Shown: in pieces, positions 17,480-23,907 of the stretch
Layout of the letters: every line of letters begins with the position of its first letter
Numbering within the stretch: the first letter of the stretch is position 1
Source of the DNA: Patescibacteria group bacterium
GTDB taxonomy: Bacteria > Patescibacteriota > Microgenomatia > UBA1400 > MFAQ01
Assembly: GCA_035291985.1 (NCBI GenBank)
Contig: DATDRC010000066.1
Coordinates: forward strand, 1 to 28,273
DNA: 28,273 nucleotides
Reading direction: 5' to 3'
Made by a program: the position numbers and the translations under genes
Notes under the pieces: generated by a model
The model's database searches: none
What the model was told of the DNA's origin: nothing
What the model saw: the letters and a program-made list of their open reading frames with translations, nothing else

Positions 17480-19231
17480 ATGAAACCAGCAGACAAAATT
17501 AGACAAGCGATTGAGGGGGTAGTTGGGAAGAATATCGATTTTGTGGTGGAGCATCCGGCGGATGAGAGTCATGGGGATTACGCAACCAATGTGGCGATGA
17601 TGATGGAGGGTAATCCGCGAGAGTTGGCGCAGGGGCTGGCGGAGAAGTTAAAAAAGAGCGCTGTTTTGGGTGGGGTGGTGGATCTCCCCCGAATCGAGGT
17701 GGCTGGCCCGGGATTCATCAATTTTTGGTTAAAAGAGGACTGGTTGCTTTCAGAAGCTGGTGAGGTAACCCAACTAAGTGATGAATATGGGAAAGGAAAC
17801 TGGGGAAAGGGACAGATTTATGAAGTTGAACATACCTCGCCAAATCCGAATAAGGCGATGCATTTGGGGCACCTTCGAAACAACGTAACGGGGATGGCGG
17901 TGGCTAATTTGTTTGAAGCGGGTGGAGTGAAAGTAATTCGGGATGCGGTTGATAACAACAGAGGGATCGCGATAGCAAAGTTGATGTGGGGATTCCTAAA
18001 GTTTGCCAAAAAAGATGGGAAAGAAACCGAAGATGTTGATTATTGGCATCTTCATCAGGATGAATGGCAAACTCCAGAAGATAAGGGGATGCGACCAGAT
18101 AGGTTTGTGGACGAGTTGTATGTCAAGGGAGCGGAAGATTCTAAGAATAAGCCGGTAGAGGAAAAGGTCAGAAAGTTGGTAGTCGATTGGGAGGCGGAAA
18201 ATAAGACGACTTGGGCTCTTTGGAGAAATGTTCTGGACTACTCGTATGAGGGGCAAGCAATGACTTTGGCGAGATTGGGTAACCGCTGGGATAAAGTTTG
18301 GCATGAGCACGAACACTATAAAGAGGGTAAAGCATGGGTCGATAAGGGGATCAAAAAGAAAATTTTCAAAGTTCTACCTGACGGGGCGGTATTAACTGAC
18401 TTATCAAAATTCGGTTTGACGGACACAATTGTAATTAAGTCTGATGGAACGGCTCTTTATATTACTCAGGATCTAGCGTTGACTTCGTTGAAAAAAAAGA
18501 CATACAAAGCTGATCGGTTGTTTTGGGTGATTGGTCCGGAGCAATCATTAGACCTGAAACAAATGTTCGCGGTCTGTGAACAGTTGGGGATTGGAAAAGT
18601 TAGCGATTTCTCCCATATCCCTTATGGATATATGTCGATCAAGGGACAGGGGAAGATGAGTAGTCGGACGGGAAACGTAGTTTATATTGACCAGCTCTTG
18701 GACTCGGCCAAAGATGAAATCAGTAAGGTAATTAAAGAGAGGGGCTTTACAAAGAAAGAGGAAGAATCGGTTTCGGAAAAGCTTGGTGTGGGTAGTGTTA
18801 AGTATTCTATTTTGAAAGTCGGAAGAATGACGGATATGGCTTTTGACCTGGCAAGCTCAATTTCTTTTGAGGGGGATTCCGGGCCTTACTTGAATTATGT
18901 TTATGTCAGAACCAAAGGAGTGGCGAGAAAAGCTAACGACGATAAAGCGGAAGTGATAATAGATGAGTTATCAGACACTGAAAAATCAATTCTAAGGTGG
19001 ATTGCCAGATTTTCTGAAGTAGTTGAGTCAGCCGGAAAAGATTTGGCTCCAAATTTAGTGTGCTCCTACTTATTTGAACTGTCACAGAAATATAATTCTT
19101 TTTATAGTAAAAACCCGATCGCGGGTGGAGGAAGATATAAGGGTAGAAGATTAACGATAAACAATGCAGTGGGACAAATAATCAAAACAGGGTTGAAACT
19201 TTTGGGAATTGAGGTGGTGGAAAAGATGTAG
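17480..19231 (+). CDS. argS: Arginine--tRNA ligase
   Basis: HGDYATN, AGPGFINF, EHTSPNPNKAMHLGH, KSDGTALY, GKMSSRTG, FEGDSGPYLNYVYVR; SD AGGAG upstream. Confidence 0.97.
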   Translation: MKPADKIRQAIEGVVGKNIDFVVEHPADESHGDYATNVAMMMEGNPRELAQGLAEKLKKSAVLGGVVDLPRIEVAGPGFINFWLKEDWLLSEAGEVTQLSDEYGKGNWGKGQIYEVEHTSPNPNKAMHLGHLRNNVTGMAVANLFEAGGVKVIRDAVDNNRGIAIAKLMWGFLKFAKKDGKETEDVDYWHLHQDEWQTPEDKGMRPDRFVDELYVKGAEDSKNKPVEEKVRKLVVDWEAENKTTWALWRNVLDYSYEGQAMTLARLGNRWDKVWHEHEHYKEGKAWVDKGIKKKIFKVLPDGAVLTDLSKFGLTDTIVIKSDGTALYITQDLALTSLKKKTYKADRLFWVIGPEQSLDLKQMFAVCEQLGIGKVSDFSHIPYGYMSIKGQGKMSSRTGNVVYIDQLLDSAKDEISKVIKERGFTKKEEESVSEKLGVGSVKYSILKVGRMTDMAFDLASSISFEGDSGPYLNYVYVRTKGVARKANDDKAEVIIDELSDTEKSILRWIARFSEVVESAGKDLAPNLVCSYLFELSQKYNSFYSKNPIAGGGRYKGRRLTINNAVGQIIKTGLKLLGIEVVEKM

Positions 19232-19244
19232 GAGCGGTTTTGAT

Positions 19245-19273
19245 TTGACAACTGCTGATTTTTAAATTAGTAT
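19245..19273 (+). promoter_or_regulatory. sigma70 promoter of the T-box leader
   Basis: TTGACA (19245-19250)-N17-TAGTAT (19268-19273). Confidence 0.7.
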
Positions 19274-19290
19274 TGGGGAAATTGTATAAA

Positions 19291-19442
19291 GGCGTTTGAG
19301 GGGAGTCGCGATCTCCGAGCCTCTTGGAGAAATACAAGACGGGTAAGCCCGAAATAGCAGGAATAAGTTCATTAGGGGTGGTACCGACTTAAAGAGTCCC
19401 CCGTCTGTTTTGATATTTTCGAAATAGACGGGGGATTTTTTT
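19291..19442 (+). ncRNA. T-box riboswitch (ultrashort Stem I, transcriptional; probable Arg specifier)
   Basis: T-box GGGGTGGTACCG (19375-19386); antiterminator GGGG-TGGTACC-GAC-TTAAAGA-GTC-CCC; mutually exclusive terminator; Stem I GGC..GA..GA-GCC (19291-19321) with CGC at 19307-19309; TCTTG/CAAGA stem; CGGG-TAAG-CCCG stem IIA. Confidence 0.88.
19397..19442 (+). terminator. Intrinsic terminator of the T-box leader
   Basis: TCCCCCGTCTGTTT / GAAATAGACGGGGGA stem followed by T7; the 5' arm overlaps the antiterminator 3' strand. Confidence 0.9.
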
Positions 19443-19462
19443 GTTATTAAATACATATAGAA

Positions 19463-20749
19463 ATGAGCGAGACTCTGAAAAAAAGTGAGGTGAAAAAGTG
19501 GGGATATCGACAACCGGTTATTTTAGTGGAGTCGCAGTCGGCGCCGATTTTGTTTGGAGATCCGGCGGAGCAGGCTTATATGCGAGGTTGTAACACAACC
19601 ACGAAAGGTGATTTGGTGGTGACTGATTTTCCACTTAATCGGCTATATGTTGAGGGATATTTGAGGGACATATTGGGTTTTGATTTACCTGATTACCTAG
19701 TGATCGAACAAACAGGAGCGGGCTGTCTTTCTGAGAACTTACTTGATCCGACAAATCAAGATTGTTTGAAGAAAATGGAACAATATTGGTTGTTAAAGGG
19801 CCGACAACCGAAGCTTCAGTTTTTTAACGTGACAGAGCATGAATTGTCTTTGGTGAGAGCTTTGGGTATCGAGTCGACTTGTGGCAATCCGGAGATGGCG
19901 ATCAAGGTTGGATCCAAGCCGGGGTTCAGAAGGCTGTGTGAAGGGTTGGGAATCCCAATGCCGAGAGGGGTTATTTGTCACAGTCTTACGGAAACGATCG
20001 TTGCAGTTTCTGCGTTATTGACTGAAGGGAAAGGGGCGATGATAAAAACAGAAAATGGTACTGGAGGGACAGACTTGAAAAGCAATGTAGTGATAGGAAA
20101 AGTGGATGAGGTTACGAGAAAACTGGCCGATTTTGACGGATTTTTGGGTGGCGAGTGGGTGGTAGAGGAAAAAGTTGATGGAGAAGATGGTTCGATTCAC
20201 GTTTTTGTTCAAGACGGTCAAATGGCCGAAAAGTCATTTGTTTTAGGGGCAATTTCTGCAGACAACTCTTATGTTGGGGGATACTTCCCCTTTGAGCCAA
20301 GTGACGAACAAATTGGAATGATGAAAATGGTTGACGATATCTTGGTGCCGGCACTGCAAGAGCTTGGCGTGTTTGGGCACCACTGTTTTGATTTTAAGGG
20401 GGGGTACTTTTTGGAAGATAACGTCCGACCGGGAGCGCTGGATTTCATTCACGGAATGGTGGTCCGAATCGCGGAAAAACATTTCGAGGGGAAATCTTAC
20501 GCATACTGGCACTACCATGTGGCAACAAGCGGACCGACTAATTTCGAACGAGTTTACGAGACACTTTCTGAATATCTCGATCCCAAAAACGCTAAAGATG
20601 GTTGTGTGGCGATGGTAAGTAACCAGGAGGTGTTGCCTTTTGGAAGATCGCTTGACTTAACTGCAATTAACTTTGGTGATGATGCGTCGGTGGAGAAAGC
20701 GAAGGAATTCTTTACTGAGCTAGAGATATTAGCAAAAGAGAAACTTTGA
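19463..20749 (+). CDS. ATP-grasp ligase resembling the PGM1 peptide-ligase family (pre-ATP-grasp plus ATP-grasp)
   Basis: LQFFNVTEHELSLVRALG, GNPEMAIKVGSKPGFRRLCEGLGIPMPRG, MIKTENGTGG, WVVEEKV, FLEDNVRPG (E-x-N-x-R). Confidence 0.7.
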   Translation: MSETLKKSEVKKWGYRQPVILVESQSAPILFGDPAEQAYMRGCNTTTKGDLVVTDFPLNRLYVEGYLRDILGFDLPDYLVIEQTGAGCLSENLLDPTNQDCLKKMEQYWLLKGRQPKLQFFNVTEHELSLVRALGIESTCGNPEMAIKVGSKPGFRRLCEGLGIPMPRGVICHSLTETIVAVSALLTEGKGAMIKTENGTGGTDLKSNVVIGKVDEVTRKLADFDGFLGGEWVVEEKVDGEDGSIHVFVQDGQMAEKSFVLGAISADNSYVGGYFPFEPSDEQIGMMKMVDDILVPALQELGVFGHHCFDFKGGYFLEDNVRPGALDFIHGMVVRIAEKHFEGKSYAYWHYHVATSGPTNFERVYETLSEYLDPKNAKDGCVAMVSNQEVLPFGRSLDLTAINFGDDASVEKAKEFFTELEILAKEKL

Positions 20750-20750
20750 T

Positions 20751-21890
20751 ATGGATGGCCTAACCTTGTTAAAACAATTAATTGCAATTAGATCTTACAG
20801 CGGTGAGGAAAAGAAATTGGCAATGTTTATTGCCGGTTGGTTTCGGAAGAGGAAAATAAAAGCAAATTTCCAAAGAGATAATCTGATCGTCTTTTTGCCC
20901 GGAAATAATTCCAAGAAAGCTTTTATCTTTAATTCGCATATGGATACGGTTTCGGCTGGTGACCGCTCGCTCTGGAAATTCGATCCCCTGGTGCCGACGA
21001 TGGTCAAAAATAAATTGGTGGGGTTGGGAGCCAGTGACATGAAGTCGGGGTTGGCGGCGGCAATGTTAACTTGTGAAGCATTTTCAAAGGCGAAACCGGA
21101 GGTTGATTTGTGGTTTACCTACGTAGTTAGAGAAGAGCAAGATGGTTCGGGGACGAATAACTTTGCCAAATGGTTTCAAGAGAGGGGCTATCACAAAAAA
21201 TATGAACAGATTGGGGCCATATTTACGGAACCGACGGGATTGTCTGAAGTGGAACACGGACACCGGGGAAACTTGTTTTTGGTCGCGACAGCGACCGGAG
21301 ATTCGGGACATGCGAGCAGACCAGGGGACATAAAAATCCATGCAGTGAAAAAAATGCTAGAGTTTGCACATGTGTTAGAAGAAGAAATGAAAAGATGGCA
21401 GAAAGAATACAAAAGCGAAATATTCGATCCGCCGACGGTCGGCGTTTTCACCTCAATAGAGGCGGGAGTAAGGGGGTGTGGTGAAATAGTCGTGGTGGAG
21501 TCGGTGAACAAATTCCCATCGAGTTGCCGGGCGACTTTTGACGTGCGATCTGTCCCCGGTTTTCACGAAGAGGCATTTTCAAAGATTGCAAGTTTGGGAA
21601 AGAAGCAAGGTGTTAAGGTGGAATTGCTCTTTCCGGCGGCGCCGTCTGGTTTTACAAAAGCAGATGACAAACTAATCACGGTGATAAAGAAGACAGTGGG
21701 TAAGGTGAAATTGACAGTCAGCCAGGGTTCTGCCGATATGGGTTTTCTTTCCGAACTGGGAGTGAAGGCGATTATTTTTGGACCTGGTGAGAAACAACAG
21801 TGTCACGTGGTGAATGAATACTGCTATCCGGATCAGGTGGAGAAAGCGGCTGGGATTTATCAAAAAGTCGTTTCGGATTGGGCCGTGTGA
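20751..21890 (+). CDS. M20 family metallohydrolase (ArgE/DapE-like)
   Basis: NSHMDTV, GLGASDMKSG, VREEQDG, FTEPT, GHAS, FDVR, ADMGF, FGPG, CHVVNE; all metal ligands present. Confidence 0.92.
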   Translation: MDGLTLLKQLIAIRSYSGEEKKLAMFIAGWFRKRKIKANFQRDNLIVFLPGNNSKKAFIFNSHMDTVSAGDRSLWKFDPLVPTMVKNKLVGLGASDMKSGLAAAMLTCEAFSKAKPEVDLWFTYVVREEQDGSGTNNFAKWFQERGYHKKYEQIGAIFTEPTGLSEVEHGHRGNLFLVATATGDSGHASRPGDIKIHAVKKMLEFAHVLEEEMKRWQKEYKSEIFDPPTVGVFTSIEAGVRGCGEIVVVESVNKFPSSCRATFDVRSVPGFHEEAFSKIASLGKKQGVKVELLFPAAPSGFTKADDKLITVIKKTVGKVKLTVSQGSADMGFLSELGVKAIIFGPGEKQQCHVVNEYCYPDQVEKAAGIYQKVVSDWAV

Positions 21891-21902: not shown

Positions 21903-22595
21903 ATGAAAAAGGAGTGGTGGGCACATCGGTCCGTGGATAGTAGTGGTAGGGTTGTAGAGGTTCTTGTCGGAACGCATCAGGTAGCGTTGGTGATAGAGTT
22001 TGACAGCAATGGAGAAATAATGTCAGGACTGTATCGACCGGAAAAAGGACTATTGGTGAGTGTAGATCCGAGGGTTCCGAAGCCGCAGGAATTGTATCGG
22101 GATGTGGCTTATTACCGTTTTTGTGACTTTTTGGGTTGGCAGGGGGTGGCCCCCGTCTTTCCTTGGCAACTTGAGCCGGGAGATAAGGGTGTAATTCGGC
22201 CATATTGGAAAGTGATAAAAAACATGGAGATTTATCATTTTGGTAAAAAGAAACTGGATGGTGGTGACCGCTTGTTCTGGAGGCGACTGGCTCTGGCCGA
22301 TTATATTTTTGGGGTTGGCGACAGGGTCAGCAATGATTTTCTGATTACCCAAGATGGTACCCAAGTGGTGGATAGCGGTTTTTCTTTCCTGCCAGAACTA
22401 AACTTTCCTTATCAACAATCGATTATTCGCGACCTGTATAGGGGCGATAGCGTTGATGATTCACTGCTTACTGACTTGGAGCGACTACGGCAAGACTTTG
22501 ATCCAAATTATGTTGATGGCTTGATCGGAGAGATTGAGTTGTACTGGGTTTGGGAACGGGTGCGAAGGATTCGGTCTGAGAAGACGTTTTGTTGA
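21903..22595 (+). CDS. Atypical kinase-fold protein resembling SCO1664 / PI3-PI4-kinase-like family
   Basis: LYRPEKG, RDVAYY..DFLGW..VAP, RRLALADYIFGVGDR, VVDSGFSF, EIE..WERVRRI match the remembered SCO1664 pattern (YKP..G, REVAAY..LGW..VP, RR.A.FD...NADR, VDHG..F). Confidence 0.6.
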   Translation: MKKEWWAHRSVDSSGRVVEVLVGTHQVALVIEFDSNGEIMSGLYRPEKGLLVSVDPRVPKPQELYRDVAYYRFCDFLGWQGVAPVFPWQLEPGDKGVIRPYWKVIKNMEIYHFGKKKLDGGDRLFWRRLALADYIFGVGDRVSNDFLITQDGTQVVDSGFSFLPELNFPYQQSIIRDLYRGDSVDDSLLTDLERLRQDFDPNYVDGLIGEIELYWVWERVRRIRSEKTFC

Positions 22596-22625
22596 CTTGA
22601 TATTTCGTGTTATATTTGTTGTAGG

Positions 22626-22682
22626 ATGCAAGTGCGTCGGCGTAGAACAATTAGCAATGATTTAACGGAATACCCGCTCTAA
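22626..22682 (+). CDS. Arginine-rich attenuator leader peptide MQVRRRRTISNDLTEYPL
   Basis: ATG CAA GTG CGT CGG CGT AGA ... CCG CTC TAA; extended -10 TGTTATATT (22608-22616) upstream; stop codon lies in the terminator loop; below the ORF-track size cutoff. Confidence 0.75.
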   Translation: MQVRRRRTISNDLTEYPL

Positions 22683-22695
22683 TGGCGGGTTTTTT
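22672..22695 (+). terminator. Intrinsic terminator / attenuator upstream of the deiminase-like gene
   Basis: ACCCGC-TCTAATG-GCGGGT-TTTTT, ending 3 nt before ATG 22699. Confidence 0.85.
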
Positions 22696-22698
22696 GTT

Positions 22699-23907
22699 AT
22701 GAGCAGACAAAATCCGGAAAGAAGAGAGGCCTTAGGAAGGAATGAGGTGGGTATAAATGAAGAAGTGGATTGGTTGGCGACGACTTTATCTTGGGGTCCG
22801 ACCGGGGTAGAAGCAGTTTTGGCAACTTTGATTCCGGAAAAGCACAGTTTGTTTTTCGACAAGATGGACGTGCTGTTGGCAAGAAGGCAGTACGAGGCCT
22901 TTCATGACACGCTTGAAAGAAGAGGTTGTTGTGTAATCAGGGTGAGAGACTTGGCAACGGAGGCGTTATTAAGAAGAGGTGGAGTGATGCCAGCCAAAAG
23001 TTTGGCGGAACTGAGGGGGAGAATTATTGCAAAGGCTGACACTCTTGTTCATAAGTATGGAAGAGGTATGAGAGAGGTGGGTGATTGTATCGCGGAGGTC
23101 CTGGTCGAAGACGCGGCCCTTTACGGAGAAGAGGGGGCGATTAGGTTGAATGCGATTCTGGCCCAAGTGGATACCGATTTTCTGCCGATGGCGAACCTAT
23201 TATTTGGACGGGATCAAAGCAACGTGGTGGGCGACATCTTGCTTTGGTCAAACATGATGCATGAAATTCGCCGTCCAGAAGTAGATTTGTGGATGATAGC
23301 GACGGAATCATTACTGGCTAATATCAAAACGACGGTGGTAACCGGTTTGGGCAGACTGGAAGGTGGAGATACGATTGTCCATAGGGGCAACTGCTTTGTG
23401 GGAGTTGGTGGCAGATCGAATCTAGCCGGTGTTGAGCAAATTGCACCGTCAGTTTTGGGTGCCGGCTTCAGGATGTTTGCGGTTTATCATCCCGAGAGAG
23501 ACGCGGGTTTGCGTGAGCACCAAACAACCATGCATTTGGACACTTTCTATATGCCCGGTCCAAAAAATACCGCAGTTGTATTAATGGAAGAGGCTCACGA
23601 AAGAACATTGCTGGAAGTAGTGGAAAACTCTAATGGAGTGAGATTGGAACCGAGAGGTACTTTTGCCGATTATCTGCTGGAGTCAGGAGCGGACATCATT
23701 CCTTTGACCCGAGAACAACAACTGAACTACCAGGCAAACTATGTGGTGTTGGATGAGAAAAGCGTCATGTTGACCATCTACGGCGATGGCTATCTGAAGG
23801 GGGAATTTGAGAAGCGGGGGGTGGAGGTCGTGGACGGCGATTTGAGCGCCATCACCAATGGATACGGTGGAGCCCACTGCTCTTTGACGCCCATACTTCG
23901 AATTTAG
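22699..23907 (+). CDS. Arginine deiminase-like protein (amidinotransferase superfamily)
   Basis: LFFDKMD..ARRQYEAFHDTL, PMANLLFGRD, RLEGGD, MHLDT, GYGGAHC (catalytic Asp/His/Cys); 402 aa. Confidence 0.85.
   Translation: MSRQNPERREALGRNEVGINEEVDWLATTLSWGPTGVEAVLATLIPEKHSLFFDKMDVLLARRQYEAFHDTLERRGCCVIRVRDLATEALLRRGGVMPAKSLAELRGRIIAKADTLVHKYGRGMREVGDCIAEVLVEDAALYGEEGAIRLNAILAQVDTDFLPMANLLFGRDQSNVVGDILLWSNMMHEIRRPEVDLWMIATESLLANIKTTVVTGLGRLEGGDTIVHRGNCFVGVGGRSNLAGVEQIAPSVLGAGFRMFAVYHPERDAGLREHQTTMHLDTFYMPGPKNTAVVLMEEAHERTLLEVVENSNGVRLEPRGTFADYLLESGADIIPLTREQQLNYQANYVVLDEKSVMLTIYGDGYLKGEFEKRGVEVVDGDLSAITNGYGGAHCSLTPILRI

Follow-up and report, generated by a model that had tools for sequence, protein, structure and literature searches.

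An arginine-type T-box leader with an ultrashort Stem I and an intrinsic terminator upstream of an ATP-grasp ligase operon in a candidate phyla radiation genome

The window analyzed here, a stretch of 28,273 nucleotides, comes from a 0.75-Mb, Collierbacteria-like groundwater genome, which bears out the initial annotation of this DNA as probably belonging to the candidate phyla radiation (CPR). All features described below lie on its + strand. The argS gene (17480–19231), which serves here as context alone, is separated by a spacer of 231 nt from the next ORF, whose ATG is at 19463. This ORF (19463–20749) encodes a 428-aa ATP-grasp protein with weak similarity to the peptide ligase PGM1, and its homologs contain a pre-ATP-grasp domain. 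The second gene (20751–21890) starts 1 nt past the ligase stop and encodes an M20 hydrolase of the ArgE/DapE family; the third (21903–22595) encodes a 230-aa protein with no informative match, for which a 233-aa counterpart exists in a homologous cluster (L063). Further downstream lies a gene for a divergent enzyme of the ADI family (guanidino-group modifying; 22699–23907), whose score of 67 bits falls far short of the arcA cut-off, 489. The spacer that precedes it (22608–22701) may contain an Arg leader-peptide attenuator, a candidate put forward in the initial sequence reading. The ADI-like gene may be under its own control or perhaps be reached by read-through from the element described below.

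The spacer between argS and the ligase gene starts with a promoter-like site, TTGACA-17-TAGTAT (19245–19273), which is near consensus (10/12 matches) and is kept in the orthologous spacer of a same-genus genome (G002). It is followed by a structured leader (19291–19442) whose modules had been described as a Stem I of about 31 nt with a K-turn-like tandem GA/GA and a terminal loop GTCGCGA, a Stem II reduced to TCTTG/CAAGA, and a hairpin CGGG-TAAG-CCCG; all were recovered at the positions given here. Stem I (19291–19321) is 31 nt long and consists of a GGC/GCC base, a K-turn-like GUUUGA..GA element in which GA 19298–19299 lies opposite GA 19317–19318 next to the GGC/GCC pairs, and a 5-bp helix GGGGA/UCUCC. 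A 5′ GA combined with a 3′ GA or AA at this place is common to the 78 leaders that we aligned. The helix is closed by the 7-nt apical loop GUCGCGA (19305–19311), in which the putative specifier CGC (19307–19309) is followed by a purine, G19310. Stem II (19322–19339, 18 nt) is a UCUUG/CAAGA hairpin with a purine-rich loop, GAGAAAUA; it has no distal helix, and no S-turn is recognizable in its five base pairs. Next come the Stem IIA hairpin CGGG-UAAG-CCCG (19340–19351), succeeded by an F-box-like segment, and a purine-rich linker, AAAUAGCAGGAAUAAGUUCAUUA (19352–19374), in which Stem III is a vestige of 3 bp at best. In relatives, the linker either measures about 10–20 nt or accommodates a long inserted hairpin. 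The Stem IIA/B pseudoknot is limited here to a possible GC/GC pairing of 2 bp, while it comprises 4–7 covarying base pairs in more divergent Arg leaders.

The 3′ half of the leader contains the two competing structures expected of a T-box switch. The T-box sequence, AGGGGUGGUACCGAC, lies at 19374–19388, and the antiterminator proposed in the initial annotation, with its UGGU bulge, is indeed present at 19375–19402: the helices GGGG/CCCC (19375–19378 and 19399–19402) and GAC/GUC, the latter closed by UUAAAGA, flank a 7-nt bulge UGGUACC (19379–19385) that exposes UGGU at 19379–19382. The antiterminator has a predicted stability of −8.8 kcal/mol. A competing terminator had also been correctly recognized, but its stem had been underestimated at about 14 bp. 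The intrinsic terminator (19396–19442) has a stem of 17 pairs (19396–19412/19420–19436), or 20 if an A-U extension is counted, and is followed by a run of seven U (19436–19442). It reuses the GUCCCC of the antiterminator, so that the two structures overlap at 19396–19402. With about −29 to −35 kcal/mol for the terminator against −8.8 kcal/mol for the antiterminator, termination is predicted to be the default state. The leader as a whole folds with a z score of −6.0 relative to shuffled sequences.

Assignment of this element to the T-box class was addressed with covariance models and comparison with relatives. The Rfam T-box model RF00230 found no match at its gathering threshold, either in the window or in the whole genome. 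In a permissive local scan, it aligned with the leader from end to end, over the K-turn, Stem II, Stem IIA, and the T-box sequence, and was the best local cis-regulatory match, with a score of 23.3 bits (E = 0.0022 in 321 nt) that remains far below the gathering cut-off of 93; in this alignment, the 75 Stem I positions of the model shrink to 7 nt. Weak matches to miRNA precursors, PyrR, and NsiR1 were rejected because they concern the terminator hairpin alone. We also built a covariance model (R2) from 49 leaders that precede serS, aspS, ileS, trpS, proS, and some other non-arginine genes; its training set comprised neither this leader nor any other Arg leader. On the 28-kb window, R2 gave a single match, at 19288–19386, with 91.3 bits (E = 1.8e−21). 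Applied to 151 related genomes, another model (R1), which covers Stem I through the T-box bulge, matched at about 195 places in 103 of them. This leader is its sole match in its own genome, and five T-box matches are present in G002. On a phylum-wide sample, the model found matches in 12 of 151 genomes, nine of them outside the order. In addition, the pattern GGGTAAGCCC-N18-48-GGTGGNACC, which starts with the Stem IIA motif, occurs about 145 times in 94 of the 286 genomes of the order, and not once when it is read backwards.

Conservation of the pairing supports the same assignment. A BLAST search of 60 relatives with the leader retrieved a 94% identical ortholog in G002, along with many partial matches to the Stem IIA segment, several per genome. 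The leader and its ortholog differ by three substitutions in helices, all of which preserve pairing (G-U to G-C, G-C to G-U, and A-U to G-U); the remaining changes fall in loops and linkers, the 7-nt loop is kept, and the flanks diverge freely. Across the 78 aligned leaders, 96.5% of the cells of the paired columns can pair, compared with 68% in shuffles and at most 47% with slid partners, and 14 of 17 pairs show two-sided changes (8/8 in Stem I, 5/5 in Stem II), figures that come from an alignment fitted to the model. These data confirm that the element is a real T-box with an ultrashort Stem I, an apical specifier, and an intrinsic terminator. They also modify its initial description as a hybrid: the combination of ultrashort Stem I and terminator is genuine, but the distribution of R1 matches indicates that the leader is no one-off and is one member of a predicted family of CPR ultrashort transcriptional T-boxes.

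Being the sole T-box match in its genome, and having several canonical modules missing or reduced, the leader might be a decayed relic, in which the hairpin would do nothing but terminate argS transcription and the T-box-like motifs would be out of use. We consider this highly improbable. The leader is separated from argS by the promoter-like site, and G002 keeps all of its helices and the 7-nt loop although the flanks diverge. The same loop and layout also stand in front of homologous operons of lineages in which protein identity has dropped to about 50%.

The amino acid specificity of the leader cannot be read from a single loop, as UCG (loop positions 2–4), CGC (3–5), and GCG (4–6) are all physically present in GUCGCGA. 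We addressed the register by examining 7-nt apical loops upstream of synthetase genes, annotated by Pfam and NCBIfam and extended by BLASTP. Of 38 automatic calls, 35 placed at loop positions 3–5 a codon for the amino acid that the downstream synthetase handles, with UCC or AGC before serS, GAC before aspS, AUC before ileS, CCU before proS, and CGC before argS. The three exceptions result from 1-nt alignment shifts or from a misplaced hairpin, and in each of them the cognate codon is visible by eye. The loops share the layout N-U-codon-R-A and are as large as an anticodon loop; among 46 of them, 33 have U at position 2, 41 a purine at position 6, and 38 A at position 7. Leaders with loops of 8–11 nt, upstream of trpS (UGG) and cysS (UGY), fit as well.

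The loop GUCGCG(A) was found in 18 leaders, every one of which adjoins arginine genes: argS in ten genomes from two sister genera, one argH-like Lyase_1 gene (a second such gene lies behind the related loop AUCGCAAU), one tRNA-Arg(TCT) gene, and five homologous ATP-grasp operons, the remaining leader being near a contig end, beside an ATP-grasp cluster. The proteins of the five operons are 49–78% identical. Two of these operons belong to this genome and to G002; the other three come from lineages, metagenomic or from NCBI, in which the ligase is 49–54% identical to the one described here. The stems around this loop covary (GGGGA/UCUCC, GAAGA/UCUUC, CCGGA/UCCGG, and CUGG/CCAG). A second read-out is provided by the antiterminator bulge, which is UGGU in all 13 Arg-type leaders counted and UGGC in 19 of 21 serS leaders, in agreement with the discriminator bases, A in all tRNA-Arg genes seen and G in tRNA-Ser. 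The initial annotation had taken UGGU to imply a discriminator A or G, and A is what the tRNA-Arg genes carry. On the basis of the family-wide register and of the arginine neighbors of the loop, the prediction that CGC is an Arg specifier, as first proposed, is well supported, and GCG and UCG do not qualify.

Could this real T-box nevertheless sense another tRNA? Among the 35 tRNA genes assembled for its genome are those for tRNA-Ala(CGC), whose discriminator is A, and for tRNA-Ser(CGA), which would read GCG and UCG, respectively, and none is tRNA-Arg(GCG) or tRNA-Arg(ACG). GCG had been mentioned from the start as an alternative, alanine, register. An Ala or Ser specificity has, in our opinion, hardly any likelihood, because the 3–5 register holds across the family and the identical loop, which was never seen before alaS, stands upstream of argS in ten cases and also of an argH-like gene and a tRNA-Arg gene. 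The lone automatic CGC call upstream of serS is due to a misplaced hairpin, the real loop of that leader showing AGC, and the discriminator G of tRNA-Ser, matched by UGGC in serS leaders, argues further against Ser. Finally, tRNA-Arg(GCG), with discriminator A, does exist in one genome of the same genus and in three genomes of the family. The assembly examined here (112 contigs, 94% complete) also lacks tRNA-Met, tRNA-His, and tRNA-Trp, which indicates that its tRNA set is incomplete, and both CGC and CGU codons are used in the genes of the window. The predicted cognate tRNA for the arginine specifier is tRNA-Arg(GCG), a perfect Watson-Crick match to CGC, in place of the tRNA-Arg(ACG) suggested initially.

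The location of the leader directly after argS had been regarded as fitting an arginine T-box. The association with arginine genes is true, but the regulatory logic drawn from it does not hold: a T-box acts on what lies downstream and this leader has its own promoter-like site, so argS is not its target. Covariance-model scans of the window and of the genome found no T-box before argS. The predicted target of the leader is the operon made of the ATP-grasp ligase, the M20 hydrolase, and the 230-aa ORF. According to a search of the order with the ATP-grasp protein, this operon is carried by just two of 286 genomes, this one (G000) and G002. Homologous clusters were retrieved from metagenome contigs, where ATP-grasp operons sit with argG, argH, the ADI-like gene, and argS. 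In L063 (6001–13311), the order is Arg T-box, ATP-grasp, M20, argH-like, argG, 233-aa ORF, ADI-like, and argS, all co-directional; other clusters run ligase, M20, ADI-like, and argS. Judging by these gene orders, the adjacency of argS does reflect a conserved arginine gene cluster. An ADI-family enzyme that shares an operon with argG and argH, as in L063, would be odd for a true arginine deiminase.

The clusters differ in their leaders. The sole T-box found in L160, close to the end of the contig, is of the Arg type and lies 3.8 kb past the gene for the ATP-grasp protein. No T-box was found in L161 and L162, two ATP-grasp/M20/ADI/ArgRS clusters that have a different, attenuator-like leader instead (L161:4790–4985 and L162:6820–7010), with repeated CCUCUC and GUGGUGAGAGG, an end of the form CCUCUC..GAGAGG-U6, and attenuator-like alternative pairings. 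Elsewhere in the order, an Arg-type T-box with the loop GUCGCGA and a terminator followed by U8 (L010:1495–1800; G057:C1, about 35.0 kb) stands directly upstream of tRNA-Arg(TCT), an unusual position for a T-box. The tRNA gene is followed by a 409-aa ORF without Pfam match, which was considered as a possible ATP-grasp homolog and rejected, as it is unrelated to the ATP-grasp protein. Arg-type T-boxes also precede the two Lyase_1 (argH-like) genes mentioned above, in L108:31–340 (G278; GUCGCGA) and L086:1012–1305 (G231; AUCGCAAU), which suggests that the Arg T-box regulon of the order includes arginine synthesis from citrulline.

As to its mode of action, the leader could resemble the ultrashort ileS leaders of Actinobacteria and have its main effect on translation or on the stability of the mRNA instead of on termination. 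All characterized T-boxes with an ultrashort Stem I are translational (PMC7583486), and the lack of an elbow contact should slow tRNA capture, which is unfavorable for a kinetic switch. The helix that competes with the antiterminator, however, is a G+C-rich hairpin of 17 bp directly followed by U7, and there is nothing to sequester, as no Shine-Dalgarno sequence was found between 19443 and the ATG at 19463 (window 19443–19465), the start codon being located 20 nt past the U-tract. Moreover, at least 65 of the 78 family leaders likewise have a stable hairpin with a U-run behind it; in most of the others, inspection by eye reveals a U-run after a helix in which the T-box bulge itself is paired. 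We therefore regard control at the level of translation or stability as improbable. A strong hairpin with U7, no Shine-Dalgarno sequence to mask, and the same output in relatives make transcription attenuation the best reading, and we put the probability that this is an arginine-specific T-box leader working by transcription attenuation at roughly 0.85. Points that count against this attenuation reading are that the distal Stem I platform is missing, that no S-turn is recognizable in Stem II, that the IIA/B pseudoknot is so short, that the first gene lacks a Shine-Dalgarno sequence, and that tRNA-Arg(GCG) is absent from the incomplete tRNA set of this assembly. A look through the listed RNA-seq runs turned up none that covers this locus.

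Two further observations concern the outputs of the family. In four lineages (the window, L002, L063, and L065), the ATP-grasp gene that follows an Arg T-box lacks a Shine-Dalgarno sequence, and a clear AAGGAG is seen at synthetase genes that follow sister T-boxes. About ten members of the family have a terminator whose 3′ arm (GGUGC, then U7) pairs with the bulge GCACC, so that the terminator encloses the antiterminator region and does not just overlap with its 3′ strand; the examples (L073, L083, L085, L086, L094, and L008) are mostly serS leaders, and one stands before a gene for a HAD-family hydrolase.

Under the attenuation reading, transcription would start at the leader's own promoter (19245–19273), and the nascent 31-nt Stem I would display the Arg codon CGC in its 7-nt apical loop, where tRNA-Arg(GCG) is expected to pair with it. 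The small Stem II hairpin and Stem IIA presumably aid the contact with the tRNA, given that the elbow-binding distal part of Stem I is absent. If the tRNA is uncharged, its 3′ ACCA would pair with the UGGU bulge and stabilize the weak antiterminator (−8.8 kcal/mol), allowing read-through into the ligase/M20/230-aa ORF operon and possibly into the ADI-like gene. With a charged tRNA, or with none, the far more stable terminator (about −30 kcal/mol, U7) would form and transcription would stop at about 19442.

The leader and its relatives, which go undetected by the standard Rfam model, join a terminator to a Stem I of the shortest kind. If they work as read here, they would set a new lower limit to the RNA needed for sensing tRNA charging during transcription, and a new annotation model would be required. 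A broader proposal, which we put forward tentatively and hold to be possible although somewhat doubtful, has two joint parts: that kinetic co-transcriptional tRNA sensing requires no more of a T-box than a K-turn, a specifier loop as large as an anticodon loop, a mini Stem II, and a pseudoknot in vestigial form, and that the Arg subgroup forms an arginine-starvation regulon of CPR bacteria. Such a regulon would comprise argS, argH/argG, tRNA-Arg(UCU), and the cluster of the PGM1-like ligase, M20 hydrolase, and ADI-like enzyme. The first part would contradict the view that terminator-type T-boxes need an elbow-binding Stem I; if the second were true, the ligase/M20/ADI-like cluster would represent an undescribed route of arginine acquisition in organisms without classical biosynthesis. 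Since the invariant loop of the Arg subgroup would tag genes that respond to arginine starvation, it offers a testable functional hint for this orphan cluster, in bacteria with minimal metabolism.

The leader shares features with two known kinds of T-boxes. In the literature, an ultrashort Stem I with an apical specifier characterizes translational, mostly actinobacterial ileS leaders, in which an elongated Stem II with an S-turn compensates for the short Stem I (PMC7583486). These leaders are known from Mycobacterium and Nocardia (Sherwood et al. 2015; structures 6UFG and 6UFM; both as cited in PMC7583486). Reviews hold that T-boxes acting on transcription generally need the distal Stem I platform; they associate slow, reversible control of translation with a short Stem I and fast control of transcription with a long one that binds the elbow (PMC7583486). 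The class II model of TBDB was searched just in Actinobacteria and in class I matches with a truncated Stem I. A full-text search for T-box together with candidate phyla radiation or Patescibacteria retrieved no paper, and we found no description of the CPR ultrashort terminator-type family in the searchable literature, which has the ultrashort Stem I just for the translational actinobacterial ileS leaders.

Like the actinobacterial ileS T-boxes, the present leader has a basal K-turn-like motif, a very short Stem I, and an apical specifier followed by a purine; the distance between the start of Stem I and the codon is about 17 nt, which comes near the C18/A19 numbering given for N. farcinica. 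Both lack the elbow-binding distal platform and retain a Stem II domain and an antiterminator-type helix with UGGN. They differ in their output, which is here an intrinsic terminator with U7 and not a Shine-Dalgarno sequestrator, in their specifier (Arg, not Ile), in their regulated genes, which are not a synthetase here, and in their host, a CPR bacterium. In contrast to their elongated Stem II with an S-turn, Stem II is reduced here to 5 bp and 18 nt without a recognizable S-turn, very little is left of the pseudoknot, and Stem III is a vestige. With class I transcriptional T-boxes (RF00230; the tyrS/glyQS type of Firmicutes, including Arg-specific members), the leader shares the T-box sequence, the competition between antiterminator and terminator, the match between UGGN and the discriminator base, the K-turn motif, a specifier of the form NNC with a purine behind it, and a Stem IIA region that is F-box-like. 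Unlike them, it has a Stem I of 31 nt that ends in the specifier loop, with no specifier internal loop, AG bulge, or distal loop, and no distal interdigitated T-loop platform for stacking on the tRNA elbow. It belongs to the CPR ultrashort transcriptional family, as indicated by the full-length R2 match (91 bits), the N-U-codon-R-A loop, the GGGUAAGCCC motif of Stem IIA, and the terminator. Within this family, it is part of an Arg-specific subgroup with the invariant GUCGCG(A) loop, and its predicted target is a rare accessory operon in place of argS.
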